Origin: an uncultured Brachyspira sp.
GTDB taxonomy: Bacteria; Spirochaetota; Brachyspiria; Brachyspirales; Brachyspiraceae
Assembly (NCBI RefSeq): GCF_944388875.1
Contig: NZ_CALXKQ010000011.1
Location: 13,073-77,072 of the forward strand
Reading direction: 5' to 3'
DNA length: 64,000 nt
A model generated the notes under the pieces. The model had not been told where the DNA came from and did not search any database. It saw nothing but the letters and a program-made list of their open reading frames with translations. Shown in pieces: positions 4,221 through 48,892 of the stretch (position 1 is its first letter; each line of letters opens with the position of its first letter). The position numbers and the translations under genes are program-made.

Positions 4221-5252
4221 TCAAACAACCATTTCATCTTCACCAGCACGGGCAACAACAATATCGCCTTGTTCTTCAAGCTTACGTATGATATTAACGA
4301 TTTTTTGCTGAGCTTCCTCAACGTCTTTAAGACGAACAGGTCCCATAAAGTCCATATCCTCTTTAAGTAATGCAGCAGCACGTTTGGACATGTTTCTATA
4401 AACTTTATCCTGAGCATCCGTATCAACACTCTTAAGTGCTTTTGCTAAGTCGCTTGAGTCAACCTCACGAAGTACTTTCTGTATAGCTCTGTCATCAAGT
4501 AAAACGATATCTTCAAATACAAACATACGTTTCTTAATCTCTTCTGCAAGTTCAGGATCATCCTCTTCCAAGCTCTCAATAATACTTTTTTCTGTGGATC
4601 TATCAACACTATTAATGATTTCTACTATAGAGTCAATACCTCCAGCAGAAGTAAAGTCTTCACTGGCAAGAGTAGAAAGTTTTCTTTCAAGTACCCTTTC
4701 AACCTCTCTTAGTACCTCAGGCGATGTTCTGTCCATTATAGCAATACGTTTAGCTACATCAGGCTGTATTTCTGTAGGCAAAGCTCCTAATATACTTGCT
4801 GCCTTTTGTGCCTCTAAATAAGCCAAAATAAGTGCTATAGTTTGAGGGTGTTCACCTTGTATGAAGTTAAGTAAGTGTGCTGGGTCTGTACGGCGTATAA
4901 AATCAAAAGGTCTAACCTGTAATGAAGATGTTAATCTGTTGATTATATCGCTTGCTTTCTGACTTCCTACAGATCTTTCAAGCAAATCTCTTGCATAATC
5001 TATACCGCCTTGAGTTATAAAATCCTGAGCTATCATCATCTCTTGGAATTCTCTGAATACTGCATCCTTATCGGCTGCTTCTATATTTTCAAGTCTAGCA
5101 ATGTCAAATGTTATTTGCTCTATTTCTTCCTCACGTAAGTGTTTGAATATTTCACTGGATGTTTCCATACCAAGTGATACTAGAAATATAGCAACTTTTT
5201 GACGTCCGCTTAAAACACGTTGCTTTTTATCTTTTTCTTTCTCTGCAGGCAT
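4221..5252 (-). CDS. fliG: Flagellar motor switch protein FliG
   Basis: LSGRQKVAIFL, EHPQTIALIL, MFVFEDI, MGPVRLKDVEEAQQKIV. Confidence 0.97.
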   Translation of the reverse strand: MPAEKEKDKKQRVLSGRQKVAIFLVSLGMETSSEIFKHLREEEIEQITFDIARLENIEAADKDAVFREFQEMMIAQDFITQGGIDYARDLLERSVGSQKASDIINRLTSSLQVRPFDFIRRTDPAHLLNFIQGEHPQTIALILAYLEAQKAASILGALPTEIQPDVAKRIAIMDRTSPEVLREVERVLERKLSTLASEDFTSAGGIDSIVEIINSVDRSTEKSIIESLEEDDPELAEEIKKRMFVFEDIVLLDDRAIQKVLREVDSSDLAKALKSVDTDAQDKVYRNMSKRAAALLKEDMDFMGPVRLKDVEEAQQKIVNIIRKLEEQGDIVVARAGEDEMVV

Positions 5253-39062: not shown

Positions 39063-40028
39063 TTATCTATTGACTAATATGTAACCAGAAGCAGGTATTA
39101 TATTAAAATTTTGTTTTGTTTTTTCTTTTACAGCTTTAAATAATAAATTAATTCCCAAACTATCACTAGACATATGACCCGCACATACTACATTAATATA
39201 ATATTTTCGGCACTCATCTAAAAGCCTGTCAGATATATTCATCACAATAATAGTTCCTATATTGGCTTTGGATAATGCTTCTATCATAGCAGAATCAAAA
39301 GAAGCCCCTCCCGTCATATCTACAATAATTTTGCCAGCCTTAGAATTATTAGAGCCATTAAATATTTTAGGCGGATTATAACGCATAGCAGATATATTAT
39401 ATTCTTCTATTGAATAGAGTATATCGATTATATCTGAAAGTTTATAAGGTTTTTCTGTTTTCATTTTTTCAGCTAAAAAACTCTCAACAAAATTATCAGC
39501 AACGGTATGCATACACATATAATTTAATTTAAGGAGTTTAGCCGCATCAACATCTCTAAAATGATTTGCTCCGTAAACAGAACGGCTTACTTCATTAAGT
39601 CTTTTATTAGATAAAGCCTCAGATACATTTATAGGCACATCATGCAATGCATTCTTATCAGACTGCATAGATATAACATCATAAAAATTAACAAATCCGT
39701 ATCCATTAGGATGATGTGTTATAACTAAATCTATATTTGCATTTTTCTCATTCAGTCTGTCGGCAAGAAGAAGTTCTGGAGTATTCATATCTATACCGCA
39801 TAAAATATTTTTTATATCTTTATCTTCTGCAATATTTAAAACTCTAGTATCAGAATAAGGATTAAAAAGTGTATCCTTATCAAAGTGCTCCTTCTTTTTA
39901 TCATCTAATTTATCATATTCTTTTTTTGTACTTTCTAATTCTTTTTCTACTAAATCCCTTCCTCTTGGGTCAGCATCTATACCGCATTCAATAACTGCAG
40001 CATAAAATTCTTTTATACTTAAAGACAT
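39063..40028 (-). CDS. NIF3/DUF34-like metal-binding protein
   Basis: DADPRG, NPYSDTR, GID, THHP, MHTVADN, AGHMSSDSLG. Confidence 0.8.
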   Translation of the reverse strand: MSLSIKEFYAAVIECGIDADPRGRDLVEKELESTKKEYDKLDDKKKEHFDKDTLFNPYSDTRVLNIAEDKDIKNILCGIDMNTPELLLADRLNEKNANIDLVITHHPNGYGFVNFYDVISMQSDKNALHDVPINVSEALSNKRLNEVSRSVYGANHFRDVDAAKLLKLNYMCMHTVADNFVESFLAEKMKTEKPYKLSDIIDILYSIEEYNISAMRYNPPKIFNGSNNSKAGKIIVDMTGGASFDSAMIEALSKANIGTIIVMNISDRLLDECRKYYINVVCAGHMSSDSLGINLLFKAVKEKTKQNFNIIPASGYILVNR

Positions 40029-40037
40029 ATAAACCTC

Positions 40038-42026
40038 TTATTCGTCATCCTCTCTCTTATTCTCATTCTTTGGCTCGCCTCTGTATTTTTCTGTTTGAAT
40101 CATTCCGCCGTCTTCAAAAAATGTTATAGCCTTATAGCTTTGTCTTATAGCAAACTCAGCACTTCCTATTGTAAGCTGTACACCAGGAAGCATCTCTTTA
40201 CCAGCACTTACAGTAGATTCAACTTTTTCTATTTCCATTTCCTGTAACAAAGCTTCTCTATTTAATACAACCTCTTCCCTTCTGCTATTAGCCTGTTCTA
40301 ACTGTTCTTTATAACTTTGCAGCTGATCTTTTTTCTCATCATCCAATTTCTTAAGTTTAGCAGCCTGCTCTATAGATTTTATATTTCTTTCTGTTTCTTC
40401 AATAGATATATCCAACTCTTCTTTCTCTTTATCCAATTCATCAACAGCACGTCTTTTTGCAGGGCTTATTCCTGTTTCTATTATAGTTTTAGCACCAGCC
40501 TGAGAACCTAATACTTTACCATTAACTTCTACTAAAGCTCTGAGTCTTCCGCCGCTTGCAGATGCTCTCTTACCTATAAGTATTATTCTATTATCCGCAT
40601 CAATATTAGAGTTCAATATAGCCTCAGTAACAACAACATTATTTCCAGCCTGAACATTGGAGAACTGTATAAACTTAGCAATAACATCCCCTCCAGCTTT
40701 TACAAAACTATTTTCATTGCCTTGAATACCAAGTTTAACCATAATGTCACCCTTAGCCTCTAAGTCGCATTTACCTACAGTTCCATGAACATCTATATTT
40801 CCTTCCGCTTTAACAGAGTAATTATCGCTTACACTTCCTTTAACAACAACACTTCCTATGAAATTAATGTTTCCAGTTTCAGGACCTACATCACCAGCCA
40901 CTTCAAATATAGGTTCAACACTAAGCAGCTTCCCTTTAAGAACAACTTGTCCGCTTATAGAAGCAATTATATATTCATTGTCATCAGACAGCTCCACGTT
41001 ATTGCCTAATATCTCTTTAATATCTATATCTTTTCCAGGTTTAGTTTCTATTTTCAATCCAAGTACAGTTCTTCCTGTTTCTCCGTCTGTAGCAGGAAGT
41101 TTTCTAGCTAACTTTTGTCCCTGCTCAACATTTTCAACTATACTTAAATCCTTATAGTCAATACTTTGATCCTCTCCTATATATTTAGGTATAACTTTTT
41201 TATTTACATTAACTAAATATTCTATCTTAGCATTCTGACCATTAACAGGAGGACGTCCTTCAGCAGCAAGTATAGGCACATTGAAAGTTCCTTCATCCAA
41301 GCATCTTGAAACATTCTCTTCTTGGAAGCCGAAAGTAATACTGCTGTTTTCTAATAATTCTTTTACATCCTGCAAGTCCATTTCCCTTCCGCCTCTAGTA
41401 GGCTTTGTAACTGTAACATAAGCACGCATCTTATCATCACTGAGAGTGTAGCTAATCTTAGCATTATTAGGAGATTTAGATATATCCCATTCAGCAATTT
41501 TTTCATACTGCCCTGTTTGTTCATGAAGCATTTTTTTTGCCAAATGAGAATCATATTCTTTTATGCCAGCATCTATTAACTTTCTTTCTAAATCCATCAT
41601 ATCTTCAATTCTTTTACCTTCAGCAACAGGAGGCATAACTTTTAAGAATACTCCATCCCTCTTAACTCTTAAAATTATTTCTGTATCTTTGTTGAATACT
41701 ACTTTCTCCTGAGCATTTTCTCCCGTATTTCCAGTGCTATAATCAACACCGCCTCCAAGAGAAATATTTGATTTTTCATATTTAATATGAGTATATCTTA
41801 CAAGAAAAGGCTTTGCTCCTATATTAAAAAATCCTTTGCTTCCCTCTTCAAGTACTTTATAACTTAATTCATATATAGGACATTGAAATACAGCAGCAGC
41901 TTCCTGCATGCCTCTTTCCAAAGAATTAACATATAAATCAACAGAACGAGTATTTTTATTATTATAAATTTCTTTATAAAAATCACTTTCTAATATTTTT
42001 CTTTTTAATTCATTCATAAAAATCAC
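40038..42026 (-). CDS. fapA: FapA/DUF342 family flagellar-associated protein with N-terminal Jag_N-like domain
   Basis: PPVNGQNA, GDVGPETGNINFIGSV.VKGSV, beta-helix-like repeats, C-terminal coiled coil; N-terminal YKVLEEGSKGFFNIGAKP. Confidence 0.85.
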   Translation of the reverse strand: MIFMNELKRKILESDFYKEIYNNKNTRSVDLYVNSLERGMQEAAAVFQCPIYELSYKVLEEGSKGFFNIGAKPFLVRYTHIKYEKSNISLGGGVDYSTGNTGENAQEKVVFNKDTEIILRVKRDGVFLKVMPPVAEGKRIEDMMDLERKLIDAGIKEYDSHLAKKMLHEQTGQYEKIAEWDISKSPNNAKISYTLSDDKMRAYVTVTKPTRGGREMDLQDVKELLENSSITFGFQEENVSRCLDEGTFNVPILAAEGRPPVNGQNAKIEYLVNVNKKVIPKYIGEDQSIDYKDLSIVENVEQGQKLARKLPATDGETGRTVLGLKIETKPGKDIDIKEILGNNVELSDDNEYIIASISGQVVLKGKLLSVEPIFEVAGDVGPETGNINFIGSVVVKGSVSDNYSVKAEGNIDVHGTVGKCDLEAKGDIMVKLGIQGNENSFVKAGGDVIAKFIQFSNVQAGNNVVVTEAILNSNIDADNRIILIGKRASASGGRLRALVEVNGKVLGSQAGAKTIIETGISPAKRRAVDELDKEKEELDISIEETERNIKSIEQAAKLKKLDDEKKDQLQSYKEQLEQANSRREEVVLNREALLQEMEIEKVESTVSAGKEMLPGVQLTIGSAEFAIRQSYKAITFFEDGGMIQTEKYRGEPKNENKREDDE

Positions 42027-42870: not shown

Positions 42871-43491
42871 TTACTTATTCTCTTTTTCATCTTTTGCTAT
42901 CATAGTTCTAACAGCTTTAGCCACTTTTTCAGGATCCTCATGAACTTCTTTAATTATCTCGCTCTCTTTTACCTTTTTATCTGGAAACATGCTGCTTGAA
43001 GAACTATAACTTGATGGTGCAGTATTAGACGATGCACTATTTGAACTTCCAAAAACTATACTTCCTATATCATCTCCTGAACTAGAATAATCCATTTTCT
43101 GATTTTTATCAACATTAGGAACAACATCAGCATCATTATTATTAGAAGAAGCATCATTAGGTAAAATTGTATTGGTAGGATGTTCATATCCTGCCATAGT
43201 GTTGTCATCTATAGCACCATAATCTATATCCAAATTAGAAGATGATGAAGCCGATGCTGATTCATCTATCACATCTCCTAAATATTTTTTCAATACAGTA
43301 CCAAGTAAAAATAATATTCCTGCCGTTATAACAGCTGATATAATAGCCTTAACTATAGAAATATCTATCCTATTTTTATATAGAACAGAAAGTATAAGCG
43401 TTATTACAAATGATAAACCTATTATTAATCCAGCCAATTTACCAAAATTAGAAGAAAAATATTGTTTAACTTTTTCAACTACATTATTCAT
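42871..43491 (-). CDS. FlgV-like two-TM flagellar protein with FliF-like C-terminal tail
   Basis: Two N-terminal TM helices, acidic/Ser-rich linker, position between flhG and fliA as for flgV in other bacteria; homology not searched. Confidence 0.6.
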   Translation of the reverse strand: MNNVVEKVKQYFSSNFGKLAGLIIGLSFVITLILSVLYKNRIDISIVKAIISAVITAGILFLLGTVLKKYLGDVIDESASASSSSNLDIDYGAIDDNTMAGYEHPTNTILPNDASSNNNDADVVPNVDKNQKMDYSSSGDDIGSIVFGSSNSASSNTAPSSYSSSSSMFPDKKVKESEIIKEVHEDPEKVAKAVRTMIAKDEKENK

Positions 43492-43527: not shown

Positions 43528-44391
43528 TTATTTTTTACTAACAAATGATAATAAAGATTCAACAAAACCGCCGAAACCTTTTATATCTCTGCCGTCATCA
43601 TACTCCATATCTATTATCTTTTTAGCTATATTATATATAGATATAGAAGCATGACATTTATTATCATACTGATAAAAAGGAAGCTGCTGTGAAACCGCAT
43701 AAGGAATGGTTTTATCTTCCAAAATATGCCCTAAATATTTAACATCCATATCTAAATATTTTTTACTAGTCATTATTATTTTATCTCCAACCTCTTTCCC
43801 TTCAGAAGCCTTAGTAACTCTATTAACCAATATTTTTATATCAGCATTTGCATTTTCTGGTGCTATAGACTTTATAACCCCATAAGCATCCAATATAGCA
43901 GTAAGTTCTGGAGTTGTTACTACAATACTTTCATCTGAAGAAAGCAAAAAGTATAAAACAGTATCTGATATGCCAGCCCCTGTATCAACTATAACTATAT
44001 CAGCATCATTTAAAGAATCCATACTATTAACTAATTTACTTAAAGCCCTTCCTGATAAATTAGCTAAAGAAGAAAATCCTGAAGCACCTGCAATATACCT
44101 TATTCCATAATTAGTTTCAAGTATAACCTCATGCAGTTTTTTTACTCCCTTTATCACATGATATAAATTATATTCAGGCATATTTCCAAGTATTACATTA
44201 ACATTACCAAGTCCAAGATCTGCATCTATCAAAAGCACATTCTGTCCCAACTGCTGCAATGCTATTGATAAATTAATTGCAATATTCGTTTTACCAACAC
44301 CGCCTTTGCCGCTGGCTATACTAATAATACGCTGAGGACGTTTATCTTTAACCCCCATCATCTTTCTTAATTCATCTGCTTGATCTTTCAT
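43528..44391 (-). CDS. flhG: FlhG/FleN MinD-like ATPase
   Basis: DQADELR N-terminus, SGKGGVGKTN, DADLGLGNV, DTGAGI. Confidence 0.94.
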   Translation of the reverse strand: MKDQADELRKMMGVKDKRPQRIISIASGKGGVGKTNIAINLSIALQQLGQNVLLIDADLGLGNVNVILGNMPEYNLYHVIKGVKKLHEVILETNYGIRYIAGASGFSSLANLSGRALSKLVNSMDSLNDADIVIVDTGAGISDTVLYFLLSSDESIVVTTPELTAILDAYGVIKSIAPENANADIKILVNRVTKASEGKEVGDKIIMTSKKYLDMDVKYLGHILEDKTIPYAVSQQLPFYQYDNKCHASISIYNIAKKIIDMEYDDGRDIKGFGGFVESLLSFVSKK

Positions 44392-44428: not shown

Positions 44429-46459
44429 TTATTTTGTATCGCCAAATAACCCTTCCATTATTTTATACCCATATTTTTTAGCAGTAGATATGTCTTTAGG
44501 AACACCCTGACCATGAGTAATATAAGTAATAGGCAGCTTTTTCTTAATTATAGCACATATCGATGAAGCTAAATAATCTGTTTCATCAACTTTAGTCAAT
44601 ATAACACCCTTATAATTTGTAGGTTTAAATGCATTCAATATTTTAACAGCATCCTTATATTTAGCAGTAGAACTCATAACAAGCTGAATATCCATATCAA
44701 ATCTTCCAACTGTAGTGAAATATTTAGACATTGCAACTATATCTTCAGCACCTTTAGGAGAACGTCCCATAGTATCTATAAATAAAAGAGAAGAATTATC
44801 CATTTTTCTAATTTCCGCTCTCAAAGCCTCTGGAGTACTCGCACTGGTAAAAGGAACTTTCATTATGCTTGCATATCTTTGAAGCTGATCTACAGCAGCA
44901 ATTCTATAATTATCTATAGTAACAAATGAAACTTTTTTACCCGATTTCATGTGCTGTGCTGCTATTTTAGGTATGGTTGTAGTTTTACCAACGCCTGTAG
45001 GTCCTACAAATACTATTATTTTCTTTTTAACTCCTATATCTATGCCGTTTGAAAGCATCAATCTTTCAGAAAAATATTTTTCAACCTCTTCTATAATTAC
45101 ATCCTTAGATTGAAAAAATCTGGCATTGCTTGAAGTAAGCAAATATTCTCTTAAATCTAATAAAATTTCTTCAGGAAACTCTCTATTTCTTAAATAGTTA
45201 AAGCTCTCTTCCATTCCGTCAGCAACAGTAACTTCAGAATCATTTTCTGTGTTATTTTCAAAATAATTTCTTATTTTATTTCTGCTACTGATTTTATTAT
45301 CTCTAGTTTCTCTAGCAAGATTATTTTCTTCTCTAAACTCTTTTATCTCTTCTATAGAATCTCTTATTTCGCTCTCTTCATCTCTAAATAAATCATTATA
45401 TTCTGTTTTTTGATTATATGTATTATCATTAATATTATTGGAGTTATAGTTCTTATTTGCATTCAGGTTTGGAATACTATTTTCTAAATATTCTTTAACT
45501 ATATCTTTTATTTGTTCCTGAACTAATCTTTTAACATTTTCATCTATAGAATTGTTAATTTGAGAATTATTAACAGTATTATTTGCATAAGAATTCATAT
45601 TATTATGAACATTGCTGTTCATACTGTTCATAAAACTATTATTAGAAAAATTACCATAACTATTACTATTGCTTGAATTATTGGAATTATAAGAAGAATC
45701 TGACAGCATTCTATTTCCCATATTGGCAAATATAGAATTAGCAAATGGAGAATTAGAGTACTGAGAATTATTAAAATGAGGCAATGGAGTAAAATTATCA
45801 TTTCCTCTTTCTATATTATTATAGTTATTTCTATCTGCAATATTATTTCTTTCTGATACATTATTTATATCTATATTATTTTTTCTCTCTAATACATCAG
45901 CACTATTAATATTGAAATCAGTATTATTATTTTCTGTATAAGAAGAATTATTGCCGATATCTGCATTATCATTTTTATTAGAAAACTCATCAGCAAAACC
46001 TAATTCTTCTGCATTTTCTTCTTTATTATTAAAAGCAGGAGTATCCAAAGAAGAAGCAGTGTTTGTATTTACCTTATTAGCATTTCTCTTTTTTAAATCC
46101 TCTTTAAGTCTTCTGCTTATAGATGCTATTCTGTCAGCCATCTCGCTGGCATCAATAGCTTCTGTTCCATGCTTTTTCATTTCTATTCTATCGCTTAAAA
46201 TTTTGCTTCTATGCATATTATCATCATCTTCTATGCTGCTGTCATAAGAACTTTTTTCTTCTGAATTGTTTTTTCTATCGTATATAGAGTTATTAAGCAT
46301 TATTCTAAGCTCATGCTCTGTTTTCATTCCAAGCCCTAAAAATCCGCCGACTTTTATATCTTTAGTAGTTAAAATGACGAAGTTGCCTCCATATTCAACT
46401 CTGGCTTTAGCTAATGCATCCTTTTTATCCTTACCTCTAATAGTGCGTATGTCTACCAT
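44429..46459 (-). CDS. flhF: Flagellar SRP-family GTPase FlhF with very long Asn/Ser-rich linker
   Basis: GPTGVGKTTT, DNYRIAAVDQL, DTMGRS, TKVDET, GQGVPKDI. Confidence 0.94.
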   Translation of the reverse strand: MVDIRTIRGKDKKDALAKARVEYGGNFVILTTKDIKVGGFLGLGMKTEHELRIMLNNSIYDRKNNSEEKSSYDSSIEDDDNMHRSKILSDRIEMKKHGTEAIDASEMADRIASISRRLKEDLKKRNANKVNTNTASSLDTPAFNNKEENAEELGFADEFSNKNDNADIGNNSSYTENNNTDFNINSADVLERKNNIDINNVSERNNIADRNNYNNIERGNDNFTPLPHFNNSQYSNSPFANSIFANMGNRMLSDSSYNSNNSSNSNSYGNFSNNSFMNSMNSNVHNNMNSYANNTVNNSQINNSIDENVKRLVQEQIKDIVKEYLENSIPNLNANKNYNSNNINDNTYNQKTEYNDLFRDEESEIRDSIEEIKEFREENNLARETRDNKISSRNKIRNYFENNTENDSEVTVADGMEESFNYLRNREFPEEILLDLREYLLTSSNARFFQSKDVIIEEVEKYFSERLMLSNGIDIGVKKKIIVFVGPTGVGKTTTIPKIAAQHMKSGKKVSFVTIDNYRIAAVDQLQRYASIMKVPFTSASTPEALRAEIRKMDNSSLLFIDTMGRSPKGAEDIVAMSKYFTTVGRFDMDIQLVMSSTAKYKDAVKILNAFKPTNYKGVILTKVDETDYLASSICAIIKKKLPITYITHGQGVPKDISTAKKYGYKIMEGLFGDTK

Positions 46460-46538: not shown

Positions 46539-46712
46539 TTAATATTGTTCCAATACGCCTATAGAAACTTCAAACTCTTTTTTAATCATGCCGAAAATAT
46601 TTTTTCTTTTGCTTTCCCTAACACTAATGATAAAATAGCTTTCACCATATTTATCTCTAGCCTGTTTTTCGATTTCTTCTCTGTTTTTTCCAAAAATTTT
46701 TATGGTTTTCAT
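46539..46712 (-). CDS. Unannotated 57-aa protein homologous to the FlhF N-terminal domain
   Basis: MKTIKIFGKNREEIEKQARDKYGESYFIISVRESKRKNIFGMIKKEFEVSIGVLEQY*; GGGAG RBS 7 nt upstream; aligns without large gaps to FlhF residues 1-60. Confidence 0.85.
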   Translation of the reverse strand: MKTIKIFGKNREEIEKQARDKYGESYFIISVRESKRKNIFGMIKKEFEVSIGVLEQY

Positions 46713-46771
46713 AGTATAACTCCCAAATATTAATATTTATATCTTAATTACTCTCATAAAAGAGCTATGTT

Positions 46772-48892
46772 TTATTTTATACTAGCAATTCCTTCAACCT
46801 TATAACCCTGTGCTATTTCAGTAGTAGCTATAACCTTATACTTTCCAACATTCTTGGATATGAATTGGAATAGAGGTCTTCTAATTAAAGGAGAAGTTAA
46901 AAATACTATATCATCAACTCCATTTTCATTAACAAGTTTAACTGCATCTTTTATATTTTTAATCAAGTTCTGCATGCTTTCAAAACTCATAGCAATCATC
47001 TGAGAACCCTGTATATTTCCAGTATTTGCTAAGTTCTGAGCTATATTGTTTTGCAGCTGCTGACTTAAAGTAATAACCCTTATATTTTTATTTTGATCTG
47101 CAACCATCTGCGATATTTGAGGAGCTAATCTGCTTCTAACAAGTTCAGTAGCCTGTTCGCTTCCCATCATAGATATAGCATCAGCAACACCTTCTAATAT
47201 TGCAACGCTGTTCTTAATAGGCACTTCCTCCTGAAGAAGATTCTGCAATACTTTCTGTATGTATCCAAGAGGACTTTCATTATGAGGCTTAGCAGCAAGT
47301 ACTTCAGATACAAGAGCTTTATGATCATCTTTGATACGATCAAGCATATTCTGTACTTCTTCACGTCCGATAAGAAGATTAGCATTTCTCTTAATTGTTT
47401 CGCTGAAGTGAGTAGCTATAACCGCTGTAGGATCAAATAACATAAATCCTTTTTTGGCAGCCATATCCCTCTCATCAACATGTATCCAATAAGCAGGAAG
47501 CCCAAATGAAGGGTCTTTAACTTTTTCACAATCCGGAGAAGGCTCTTCCTGTACATTAGAGTTTAAAGCCAAAAGCATTTTAGGTCTTACAAAACCTTTA
47601 GCAACTTCTGTACCATTAATACTAATAGTATATTCATCCTGATCTATAACTGTATTATCAAGAATTCTTACTGGAGGCACAGCAAGCCCAATCTCTAATG
47701 CTAACTCTCTTCTAACCTGAGTTATTCTATGTATCAAATCACCGCCCTGATCCTCTAATGCTAACGGAACCAATGATGTAGCTATGGAAAGCTCTATCTT
47801 CTCAACTTTCAAATACTGACTTACATCTAAAGGACCTCTCTGTGTCTGTTCAGCATCTGCAGTCTTTGTACCATCTTCATTAAGACCTAATTCCTGCTGT
47901 TCTTTTCTTAATGCATAGCCTGCTAAGAATAATGCTAATGCTATAACAAATAATGCTATTTTTGGAAATCCAGGTAAAAGCATTAGAAAGAAAGCAAAAC
48001 CTGCACCTATGAATAAGTTTTTAGGTTTAGCAAAAACCTGTACAGCAATCTGAGTGGATAAATTATCCTCGCTGCTGCTTCTAGTTACAAGCAAACCAGT
48101 AGCAAAACTCATAAAAAACGAAGGTATCTGACTTACCAAACCATCGCCGACTGTAAAGCGTGTATAAGCATCAGCAGCCTGAGCAAAAGGCTCTCCTCTC
48201 ATAGTCATACCTATGATGAGTCCGCCTACTATATTTATAATAGTGATTATGATACCAGCTATAACGTCCCCTTGTACAAATTTTGAAGCACCGTCCATAG
48301 TACCATAAAAATCACTCTCGCTTCTTATCTTTTTTCTCTTATCTTCAGCTTCTTTATCAGTAATAGCTCCAGCCTGAAGTTCGCTTTCTACTGCCATCAT
48401 CTTTGAAGGCATACTATCCAAAGCAAATCTTGCTGCTACTTCTGATACCCTTGTCGCACCTTTTGTGATAACAACGAATTGTACTATTATAAGTATTATA
48501 AATATTACAACACCTACAACTATATTATTTCCAACTACAAACTCAGCAAATGATGTGATAACTTTACCATTAAAATTAGTACCCTGTGTTAGAATTGCCC
48601 TTGTTGTAGATACGTTTAATGCCAGTCTGAATGCAGTCATAACAAGCAGAACTGAAGGAAATACACTAAACTCACTTGCACTTTTCAAACTTAATACCAT
48701 AAGAAGTATTAAAAGCGATATTACTATATTTACTATAAGCAAAAAGTCCAATATCATTGAAGGCAATGGTATAATGAGCATCATTATTACCATAACCGCA
48801 CCTACAGCAAACATTATATCACTATGTCTGCTTATATTAGCAGGCAGTTTTATCGAATCCAAAATTGATTTAGCACTATTCATTGTTGCCAC
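46772..48892 (-). CDS. flhA: Flagellar export gate protein FlhA
   Basis: FPSVLL, RVSEVAARFALDSMPSKMMA, FYGTMDGASKFVQGD, GDGLVSQIP. Confidence 0.97.
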   Translation of the reverse strand: MATMNSAKSILDSIKLPANISRHSDIMFAVGAVMVIMMLIIPLPSMILDFLLIVNIVISLLILLMVLSLKSASEFSVFPSVLLVMTAFRLALNVSTTRAILTQGTNFNGKVITSFAEFVVGNNIVVGVVIFIILIIVQFVVITKGATRVSEVAARFALDSMPSKMMAVESELQAGAITDKEAEDKRKKIRSESDFYGTMDGASKFVQGDVIAGIIITIINIVGGLIIGMTMRGEPFAQAADAYTRFTVGDGLVSQIPSFFMSFATGLLVTRSSSEDNLSTQIAVQVFAKPKNLFIGAGFAFFLMLLPGFPKIALFVIALALFLAGYALRKEQQELGLNEDGTKTADAEQTQRGPLDVSQYLKVEKIELSIATSLVPLALEDQGGDLIHRITQVRRELALEIGLAVPPVRILDNTVIDQDEYTISINGTEVAKGFVRPKMLLALNSNVQEEPSPDCEKVKDPSFGLPAYWIHVDERDMAAKKGFMLFDPTAVIATHFSETIKRNANLLIGREEVQNMLDRIKDDHKALVSEVLAAKPHNESPLGYIQKVLQNLLQEEVPIKNSVAILEGVADAISMMGSEQATELVRSRLAPQISQMVADQNKNIRVITLSQQLQNNIAQNLANTGNIQGSQMIAMSFESMQNLIKNIKDAVKLVNENGVDDIVFLTSPLIRRPLFQFISKNVGKYKVIATTEIAQGYKVEGIASIK

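Follow-up and report, generated by a model that had tools for sequence, protein, structure and literature searches.

A conserved small gene between flhA and flhF of Brachyspirales encodes a putative stand-alone FliG-interacting domain

Results

A 57-codon gene between flhA and flhF

Within the 64,000-nucleotide stretch of Brachyspira DNA analysed here (henceforth the window), the flagellar genes flhA and flhF are separated by an open reading frame (ORF) of 57 codons. We regard it as very nearly certain that the ORF is a genuine gene and that its product is a stand-alone paralogue of the FliG-interacting domain (FID), which forms the N-terminal head of FlhF. From this homology and from what is known of the FID elsewhere, we infer that the 57-aa protein may be a regulator directed at FliG; we assign this functional reading a probability of roughly 55%, a figure within which the sign of the effect remains open. 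What is new is the architecture, i.e., a head-only gene beside a complete FlhF, conserved across a whole order; the FID itself was already known.

Table 1. Coordinates of the 57-aa gene, its neighbours and related loci (aa: amino acids; nt: nucleotides)
Feature	Location	Strand	Evidence or remark
57-aa gene, stand-alone paralogue of the FlhF FID	window 46539..46712 (stop codon included)	-	ORF, profile and model evidence
RBS GGGAG of the 57-aa gene	window 46724..46720	-	7 nt 5' of the ATG
flhA, upstream of the 57-aa gene	window 46772..48892	-	59-nt gap to the 57-aa gene; same strand
flhF, 676 aa, downstream of the 57-aa gene	window 44429..46459	-	79 nt after the 57-aa gene; SRP54 and TIGR03499 matches
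FID of FlhF itself (first 57 codons), paralogue of the 57-aa gene	window 46289..46459	-	BLASTP, AF2, Foldseek
flhG, MinD-like ATPase, FlhF partner	window 43528..44391	-	Pfam ParA/CbiA and NCBIfam MinD-type matches
fliG, inferred binding partner of both FIDs	window 4224..5228	-	TIGR00207, E 8.9e-143; contig positions 17296-18300
206-aa ORF between flhG and fliA/whiG	window 42871..43491	-	
662-aa ORF 3' of fliA	window 40038..42026	-	
321-aa ORF 3' of fliA	window 39063..40028	-	
Broken 57-aa gene, genome G155	L041 2859..3032	+	two 1-nt deletions
Tandem small genes, genome G014, first copy	L021 2862..3035	+	57 aa
Tandem small genes, genome G014, second copy	L021 3054..3224	+	56 aa
83-84-aa ORF, genome G003	L006 1716..1970	+	
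83-84-aa ORF, genome G202	L062 345..599	+	
83-84-aa ORF, genome G136	L063 306..557	-	
213-aa protein, genome G097	L067 686..1327	+	chance local match

The ORF is intact and its product reads MKTIKIFGKNREEIEKQARDKYGESYFIISVRESKRKNIFGMIKKEFEVSIGVLEQY; an initial annotation of this DNA had given the same position on the minus strand, the same GGGAG ribosome-binding site (RBS) and exactly this peptide. A GGAG core stands at an equal distance from the start codon in 25/25 Brachyspira loci examined, and the spacers that surround it differ. The same annotation called the gene hidden, which overstates the case: public records at NCBI and UniProt already carry the ORF as a “hypothetical protein” or “uncharacterized protein” (e.g., D8IA40_BRAP9).

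The gene is part of a flagellar series in the order fliP-fliQ-fliR-flhB-flhA, the 57-aa gene, flhF, flhG, a 206-aa FlgV-like ORF and fliA/whiG. A consensus scan of the coding strand found no terminator-like or promoter-like site in the gaps between flhA, the 57-aa gene and flhF. Because neither gap shows such a site, the simplest assumption is that flhA, the 57-aa gene and flhF probably share a transcript, an inference for which there is no RNA evidence. The adjacent FlhF consists of a FID head, a long Asn/Ser-rich linker and an SRP-type NG GTPase domain, with Pfam SRP54 (PF00448) matched at residues 480-662 (E 1e-33) and a match to TIGR03499 (E 2.6e-50).

Homology to the head of FlhF

The likeness to the N-terminus of FlhF that had been proposed for the peptide proved to lie far beyond chance. 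In a two-sequence BLASTP comparison, 47 residues aligned with the extreme N-terminus of the adjacent FlhF at 30% identity (E=4e-4), and the curated NCBIfam FlhF profile TIGR03499 matched the window peptide with its model positions 1-52 (E=1.7e-4). The same positions were matched by 14/14 diverse members of the small-protein family, at a best E-value of 8.6e-8. Reciprocally, the small-protein profile found the N-termini of FlhF proteins of about 400 aa in many other spirochaete families, with E-values down to 2e-7. Alignment of the small proteins with FlhF heads of spirochaetes from outside the order using hhalign gave 99% probability (E 7e-18); this figure is not fully independent, because those heads were located with the family profile, while the TIGR03499 result is independent. 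A sequence search of the PDB ranked the solved FID of Shewanella putrefaciens FlhF (9en1) at the top, weakly (E 0.3).

The protein is nevertheless not an FlhF, because it has no GTPase domain and because it scores 21.7 bits against TIGR03499, for which the family cut-off is 174.15 bits. A Pfam search of the peptide gave no PF00448 match, and the protein stops at residue 57, so that the covalent linkage of FID to NG domain is absent; flhF starts separately and carries a FID of its own. Pfam holds no model for a FID-type domain.

Two weak matches to other families were considered and set aside. A sub-threshold Pfam match to YdgH/BhsA (E 0.052) was disregarded. A match to the LIC_10450 family (NF047778) was found in only 3 of the 14 members (E 0.003), and it was pursued by a search of the phylum and through a Leptospira locus; hhalign to a Leptospira member returned 1.8% probability, and we rejected the match as chance.

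Predicted structure

An AF2 model of the 57-aa protein, computed from the family alignment, reached a pLDDT of 87 and placed a strand at residues 2-8, a helix at 11-22 and further strands at 26-37 and 43-53. The topology is thus beta-alpha-beta-beta, with three antiparallel strands packed on one helix. When the model was compared with 350,542 PDB chains using Foldseek, the top match was 9EN1, the “FliG interacting domain of SpFlhF (FID)”, with E 0.044, probability 1.0 and a TM-score of 0.62-0.78. The E-value is weak in absolute terms, as expected for a domain of only 57 residues.

As a control, we modelled the genuine FlhF head of the window, which gave a pLDDT of 86.6, the same topology and the same top match (9EN1, E 0.047, TM 0.60-0.76). 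The equal score means that the 57-aa protein is as much like the solved FID as is the lineage's true FlhF head. The expectation of a FID fold is therefore met at the level of a predicted, not an experimental, structure. Together with the profile searches in both directions, this bears out the initial annotation in its central claim, that the gene encodes a stand-alone copy of FlhF's N-terminal domain, and the structural comparison with that domain, which it had put forward as a check, came out in favour.

Conservation and selection

Using the family profile, we found the 57-aa gene in 40/40 species-level Brachyspirales genomes, which span five genera and two families and include AT-rich as well as GC-rich members; the frame is open in 39/40. 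A six-frame search recovered it in 24/24 of the same-genus genomes sampled first, at 70-100% identity. The order flhA-X-flhF, with X the small gene, held at every relative locus read, including those of two other genera of the family. In the second family, represented by two GC-rich genomes of ~5 Mb, the product is 63 aa long, begins MREKKFFGKSR... and is likewise encoded between flhA and flhF. Across the AT-rich and GC-rich families the protein is conserved at a profile E-value of about 1e-25.

Substitution patterns point in the same direction. When 24 distinct DNA versions from Brachyspira were compared with the window copy, nearly every change was synonymous (9-22 synonymous and 0-1 nonsynonymous changes for the closer species), the variable sites fell on the three codon positions as 18/15/51, and the median pairwise dN/dS was 0.02. 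Pooled pN/pS was 0.068, as against 0.18 for the first 57 codons of flhF itself in the same genomes. As estimated from these codon-level comparisons, the gene is under very strong purifying selection. We take it as demonstrated, in the absence of expression data, that the ORF is a gene, translated and under strong constraint. Conservation, synteny and dN/dS had been named beforehand among the means of checking the gene, and on each of them it passed.

An internal contrast is provided by a weakly constrained duplicate at the same locus. In three Brachyspira species, the interval from the 57-aa gene to flhF holds an additional ORF of 83-84 aa (MAEICSIKCKNKTDAIIDAEYGRNF...GGFLG...EHELRRML...). This young duplicate of the flhF 5' end, at about 73% nucleotide identity, has a GGAG of its own and is open in 3/3. 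Its dN/dS was 0.46-0.76; in the same pairs, the FlhF head gave 0-0.07.

These data also bear on whether the product does anything at all, since the ORF might be a duplication remnant, or an upstream ORF that is translated only to couple or tune flhF expression. A small ORF immediately upstream of flhF could be read in this way, and the young duplicate with its relaxed constraint shows that the locus does yield remnants. There is also one broken copy: in genome G155 the 57-aa gene is interrupted by two 1-nt deletions, each in an A6 run, with the remaining ORF conserved, flhA and flhF intact and a 41-aa product annotated by NCBI. Either the assembly is wrong at this point or the gene was lost very recently; if the break is real, that strain at least can do without the gene. 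Against a non-functional product, however, stand the dN/dS and pN/pS values of 0.02-0.07 over 24 DNA versions, a substitution pattern that effectively refutes it, as well as the conservation of the protein between the AT-rich and GC-rich families and the confident folded model. Moreover, the non-coding spacer from the 57-aa gene to flhF ranges from 17 to 323 nt in Brachyspira loci, and because its length varies so much, positional coupling to flhF is not conserved. We consider a non-functional product very improbable.

Origin and distribution

To place the small proteins, a maximum-likelihood tree was built from them and 24 FlhF heads; the alignment has only 61 columns, and the deep forks are unresolved. 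The small proteins form one clade (support 93/94) that splits into the two families, and the FlhF heads from this order group in another (99/97). The tree points to a single duplication of an FlhF head, at the root of Brachyspirales or earlier, and it is because the two clades are separate that we infer one old event rather than a recent scar. The copy has been kept between flhA and flhF beside an intact FlhF with its own FID. The earlier view that this is no recent duplication scar thus holds, given an old clade that extends over two families, strong purifying selection and the contrast with the young duplicate.

No stand-alone copy was found in 261 other Spirochaetota genomes, where every credible match lay in a frame of FlhF length; the exceptions were checked singly. 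One short- or medium-frame match (G033) is an FlhF interrupted by a run of N, and another (G101) lies at a contig end. The third, in a 213-aa protein of genome G097, covers positions 9-42 of the small-protein profile (...KKFQQKYGGKVFYIISIKDG..., E 2.4e-5); the protein is encoded beside a DNA methyltransferase in a restriction-modification context, and we regard this as a chance local match.

A wider HMMER search of 1.84 billion representative proteins returned 9 matches, and all the stand-alone ones that could be placed belong to the small-protein family. Two were left unplaced, a 64-aa protein on a 970-nt contig (P0037), which is probably a fragment, and a 251-aa protein with an odd C-terminus (P0036). 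Since a 57-residue profile has limited sensitivity at that database size, distant stand-alone FIDs elsewhere are not excluded. A search of short proteins with a mixed FID profile gave only Brachyspira proteins and truncated FlhF calls, within the limited sensitivity of its word-based candidate step. A 624-aa member of a 90% cluster (P0141) turned out to be a penicillin-binding protein and was dismissed as a clustering artefact.

One further duplicate was found at the junction. The most divergent Brachyspira genome (G014) has two small genes in tandem before flhF. The second copy sits on a long branch within the small-protein clade, and a few further records contain near-identical proteins.

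Proposed function

In Shewanella putrefaciens, residues 1-60 of FlhF are both required and enough for binding to FliG (Dornes et al. 2024, PMC11236974), in agreement with the statement in the initial annotation that this part of FlhF contacts FliG. There, the FID contacts the middle and C-terminal domains of FliG (FliG-MC), FliG bound to FlhF can bind the FliF C-terminus and cannot bind FliM/FliN, and the NG domain of FlhF is the link to the polar landmark, in a cycle modulated by FlhG (PMC11236974). A contact between FlhF and FliG has also been published for P. aeruginosa (PMC12713375). Among spirochaetes, FlhF and FlhG set the number and placement of periplasmic flagella in Borrelia (PMC13712777), and control of the number and arrangement of periplasmic flagella by FlhF in B. 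burgdorferi is cited in PMC12826062 and PMC13712777. The window genome has a single match to FliG (TIGR00207, E<=0.001) in its whole 3.1 Mb. Borrelia and some other spirochaetes possess two FliG paralogues.

On this basis we propose that the free FID most likely binds Brachyspira's single FliG as the Shewanella FID does; the binding is inferred, because in Shewanella the 60-residue FID alone suffices. Without the linker and the NG GTPase, and hence without the FlhG-controlled and pole-anchoring parts, the 57-aa protein would be an untethered FliG cap acting in trans. Such a cap would hold cytoplasmic FliG in a form not yet able to bind FliM/FliN, and the free FID would compete with FlhF for FliG. 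Capping and competition together could then tune the number of basal bodies started per cell end in these many-flagellated spirochaetes. Given the probable co-transcription with flhA and flhF, the dose of the 57-aa protein would be coupled to theirs. The role of a GTPase-free competitor or adaptor, which had been suggested at the outset, is plausible; it remains an inference without functional data. The FliG-regulator reading is weakened by the fact that FID-FliG binding is known from gammaproteobacteria and not from spirochaetes, and by the lack of data on binding, expression or phenotype.

The sign of the effect could also be the reverse, with the free FID as a positive assembly factor that chaperones FliG or delivers it to nascent FliF rings, allowing many motors per pole, in which case its loss would lead to fewer flagella. 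This rests on the same structural evidence as the competitor reading; in addition, FlhF-bound FliG still binds FliF-C, so a FID-FliG complex would be compatible with loading of the MS ring, and very strong purifying selection fits a fitness cost on loss. With no pole tether, however, the protein alone cannot confer place, and a cap that blocks FliM/N must come off, for which no release mechanism is evident in 57 residues. We consider a delivery role clearly unlikely.

A more serious possibility, though still one that we would bet against, is that the protein has the same fold and another partner, such as the FID of FlhF itself (through a hetero-association that masks or bridges FlhF), FliF, the cytoplasmic domain of FlhA, or FlhG, and that it regulates FlhF or the export gate and not the FliG pool. 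Residues K2, F7, R11 and E24 are specific to the small proteins and absent from FlhF heads, as is R36-K37 in the beta2-beta3 turn, where FlhF heads have Gly-Gly; these consistent surface differences could reflect binding to something else. The copy, being old and outside the local FlhF clade, has had time to neofunctionalise, and constraint above that on FlhF's own head would be expected if the surface had a specific job. FlhF-FliF contacts are reported in a Vibrio preprint. The literature consulted gives no map of the FID-FliG interface, which leaves room for a different partner. On the other hand, the core and several exposed positions (R19, Y22-G23, G41, K45) are common to the small proteins and FlhF heads, FliG binding is the only biochemically defined activity of the FID fold, and this analysis yielded no evidence for any other partner. 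FliG remains the preferred target.

A broader version of the FliG-directed proposal is more tentative, and in our judgement somewhat more apt to fail than to hold. It would have the head-only FlhF fragment regulate the FliG pool in trans, adding to FlhF and FlhG a third part of the counting switch by which the number of periplasmic flagella at each cell end is set. It would also make the flhA-flhF junction a hot spot for the birth of FID genes, with at least three independent events, namely the ancient 57-aa gene, the tandem copy in one species and the young flhF-5' duplicate in three species.

Comparison with known systems and significance

The closest known relative is the FID of S. putrefaciens FlhF (9EN1), which the 57-aa protein resembles in size (about 45-60 residues), in its beta-alpha-beta-beta topology, as its best PDB match and in the flhA-flhF neighbourhood. 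The differences are that the Brachyspira version is a separate gene with its own RBS and stop, additional to a complete FlhF, that it lacks the linker and NG GTPase and with them FlhG control and pole anchoring, and that it has conserved residues of its own, with FliG binding only inferred. With full-length FlhF of Brachyspira and other spirochaetes (e.g., Borrelia burgdorferi BB0270) it shares the head and the operon, and it differs in being without the GTPase that defines the family.

Small proteins that bind FliG in trans are the EpsE clutch of B. subtilis and the PilZ brakes of the YcgR/MotI type, and in plants the “microProtein” concept describes single-domain paralogues that titrate their multidomain relatives. 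The likeness to these is conceptual, in that a small protein occupies an interaction surface of a rotor protein or of a multidomain relative. Their folds are unrelated to that of the 57-aa protein, and they act on finished motors, as opposed to the assembly step proposed here; no homology is implied.

Literature searches on a stand-alone FID, on Brachyspira flhF and on the protein's accessions found nothing on the 57-aa gene, in line with the initial annotation, which knew of no described stand-alone gene of this kind. A 2025 review of how FlhF and FlhG diversified treats the FID solely as a component of FlhF. The domain was not defined until 2024, as the segment with which FlhF captures FliG so that a flagellum can begin, and flagellar counting is still debated in terms of FlhF and FlhG alone. 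A GTPase-free FID, conserved, strongly selected and present alongside FlhF, would bring a new kind of participant into that debate, and would offer a natural experiment in which the FID is freed from both GTPase and pole. The gene also bears on the motility of Brachyspira, in which periplasmic flagella matter for gut colonisation of pigs, poultry and humans, and the proposal gives a functional context to a “hypothetical protein” that is ubiquitous in the order. With a soluble protein of 57 residues, a single FliG in the genome and binding assays for FID and FliG already available, the proposal is readily testable.

Neighbouring ORFs and the FlhF linker

The 206-aa ORF between flhG and fliA/whiG encodes a pair of N-terminal membrane segments followed by a long Ser/Asn-rich polar tail. 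Neither NCBIfam nor Pfam assigns it to a family. By position and architecture it agrees with FlgV (the BB0268 family) as described in PMC11607428, without established homology. Directly 3' of fliA lie two ORFs of 662 and 321 aa, neither of which has an NCBIfam match at E<=1e-5.

FlhF itself is longer in this order (494-683 aa) than in other spirochaete families (about 376-484 aa), and the extra length consists of the Asn/Ser-rich low-complexity linker between head and GTPase. A long FlhF linker and an extra free head thus co-occur in the Brachyspirales lineage.
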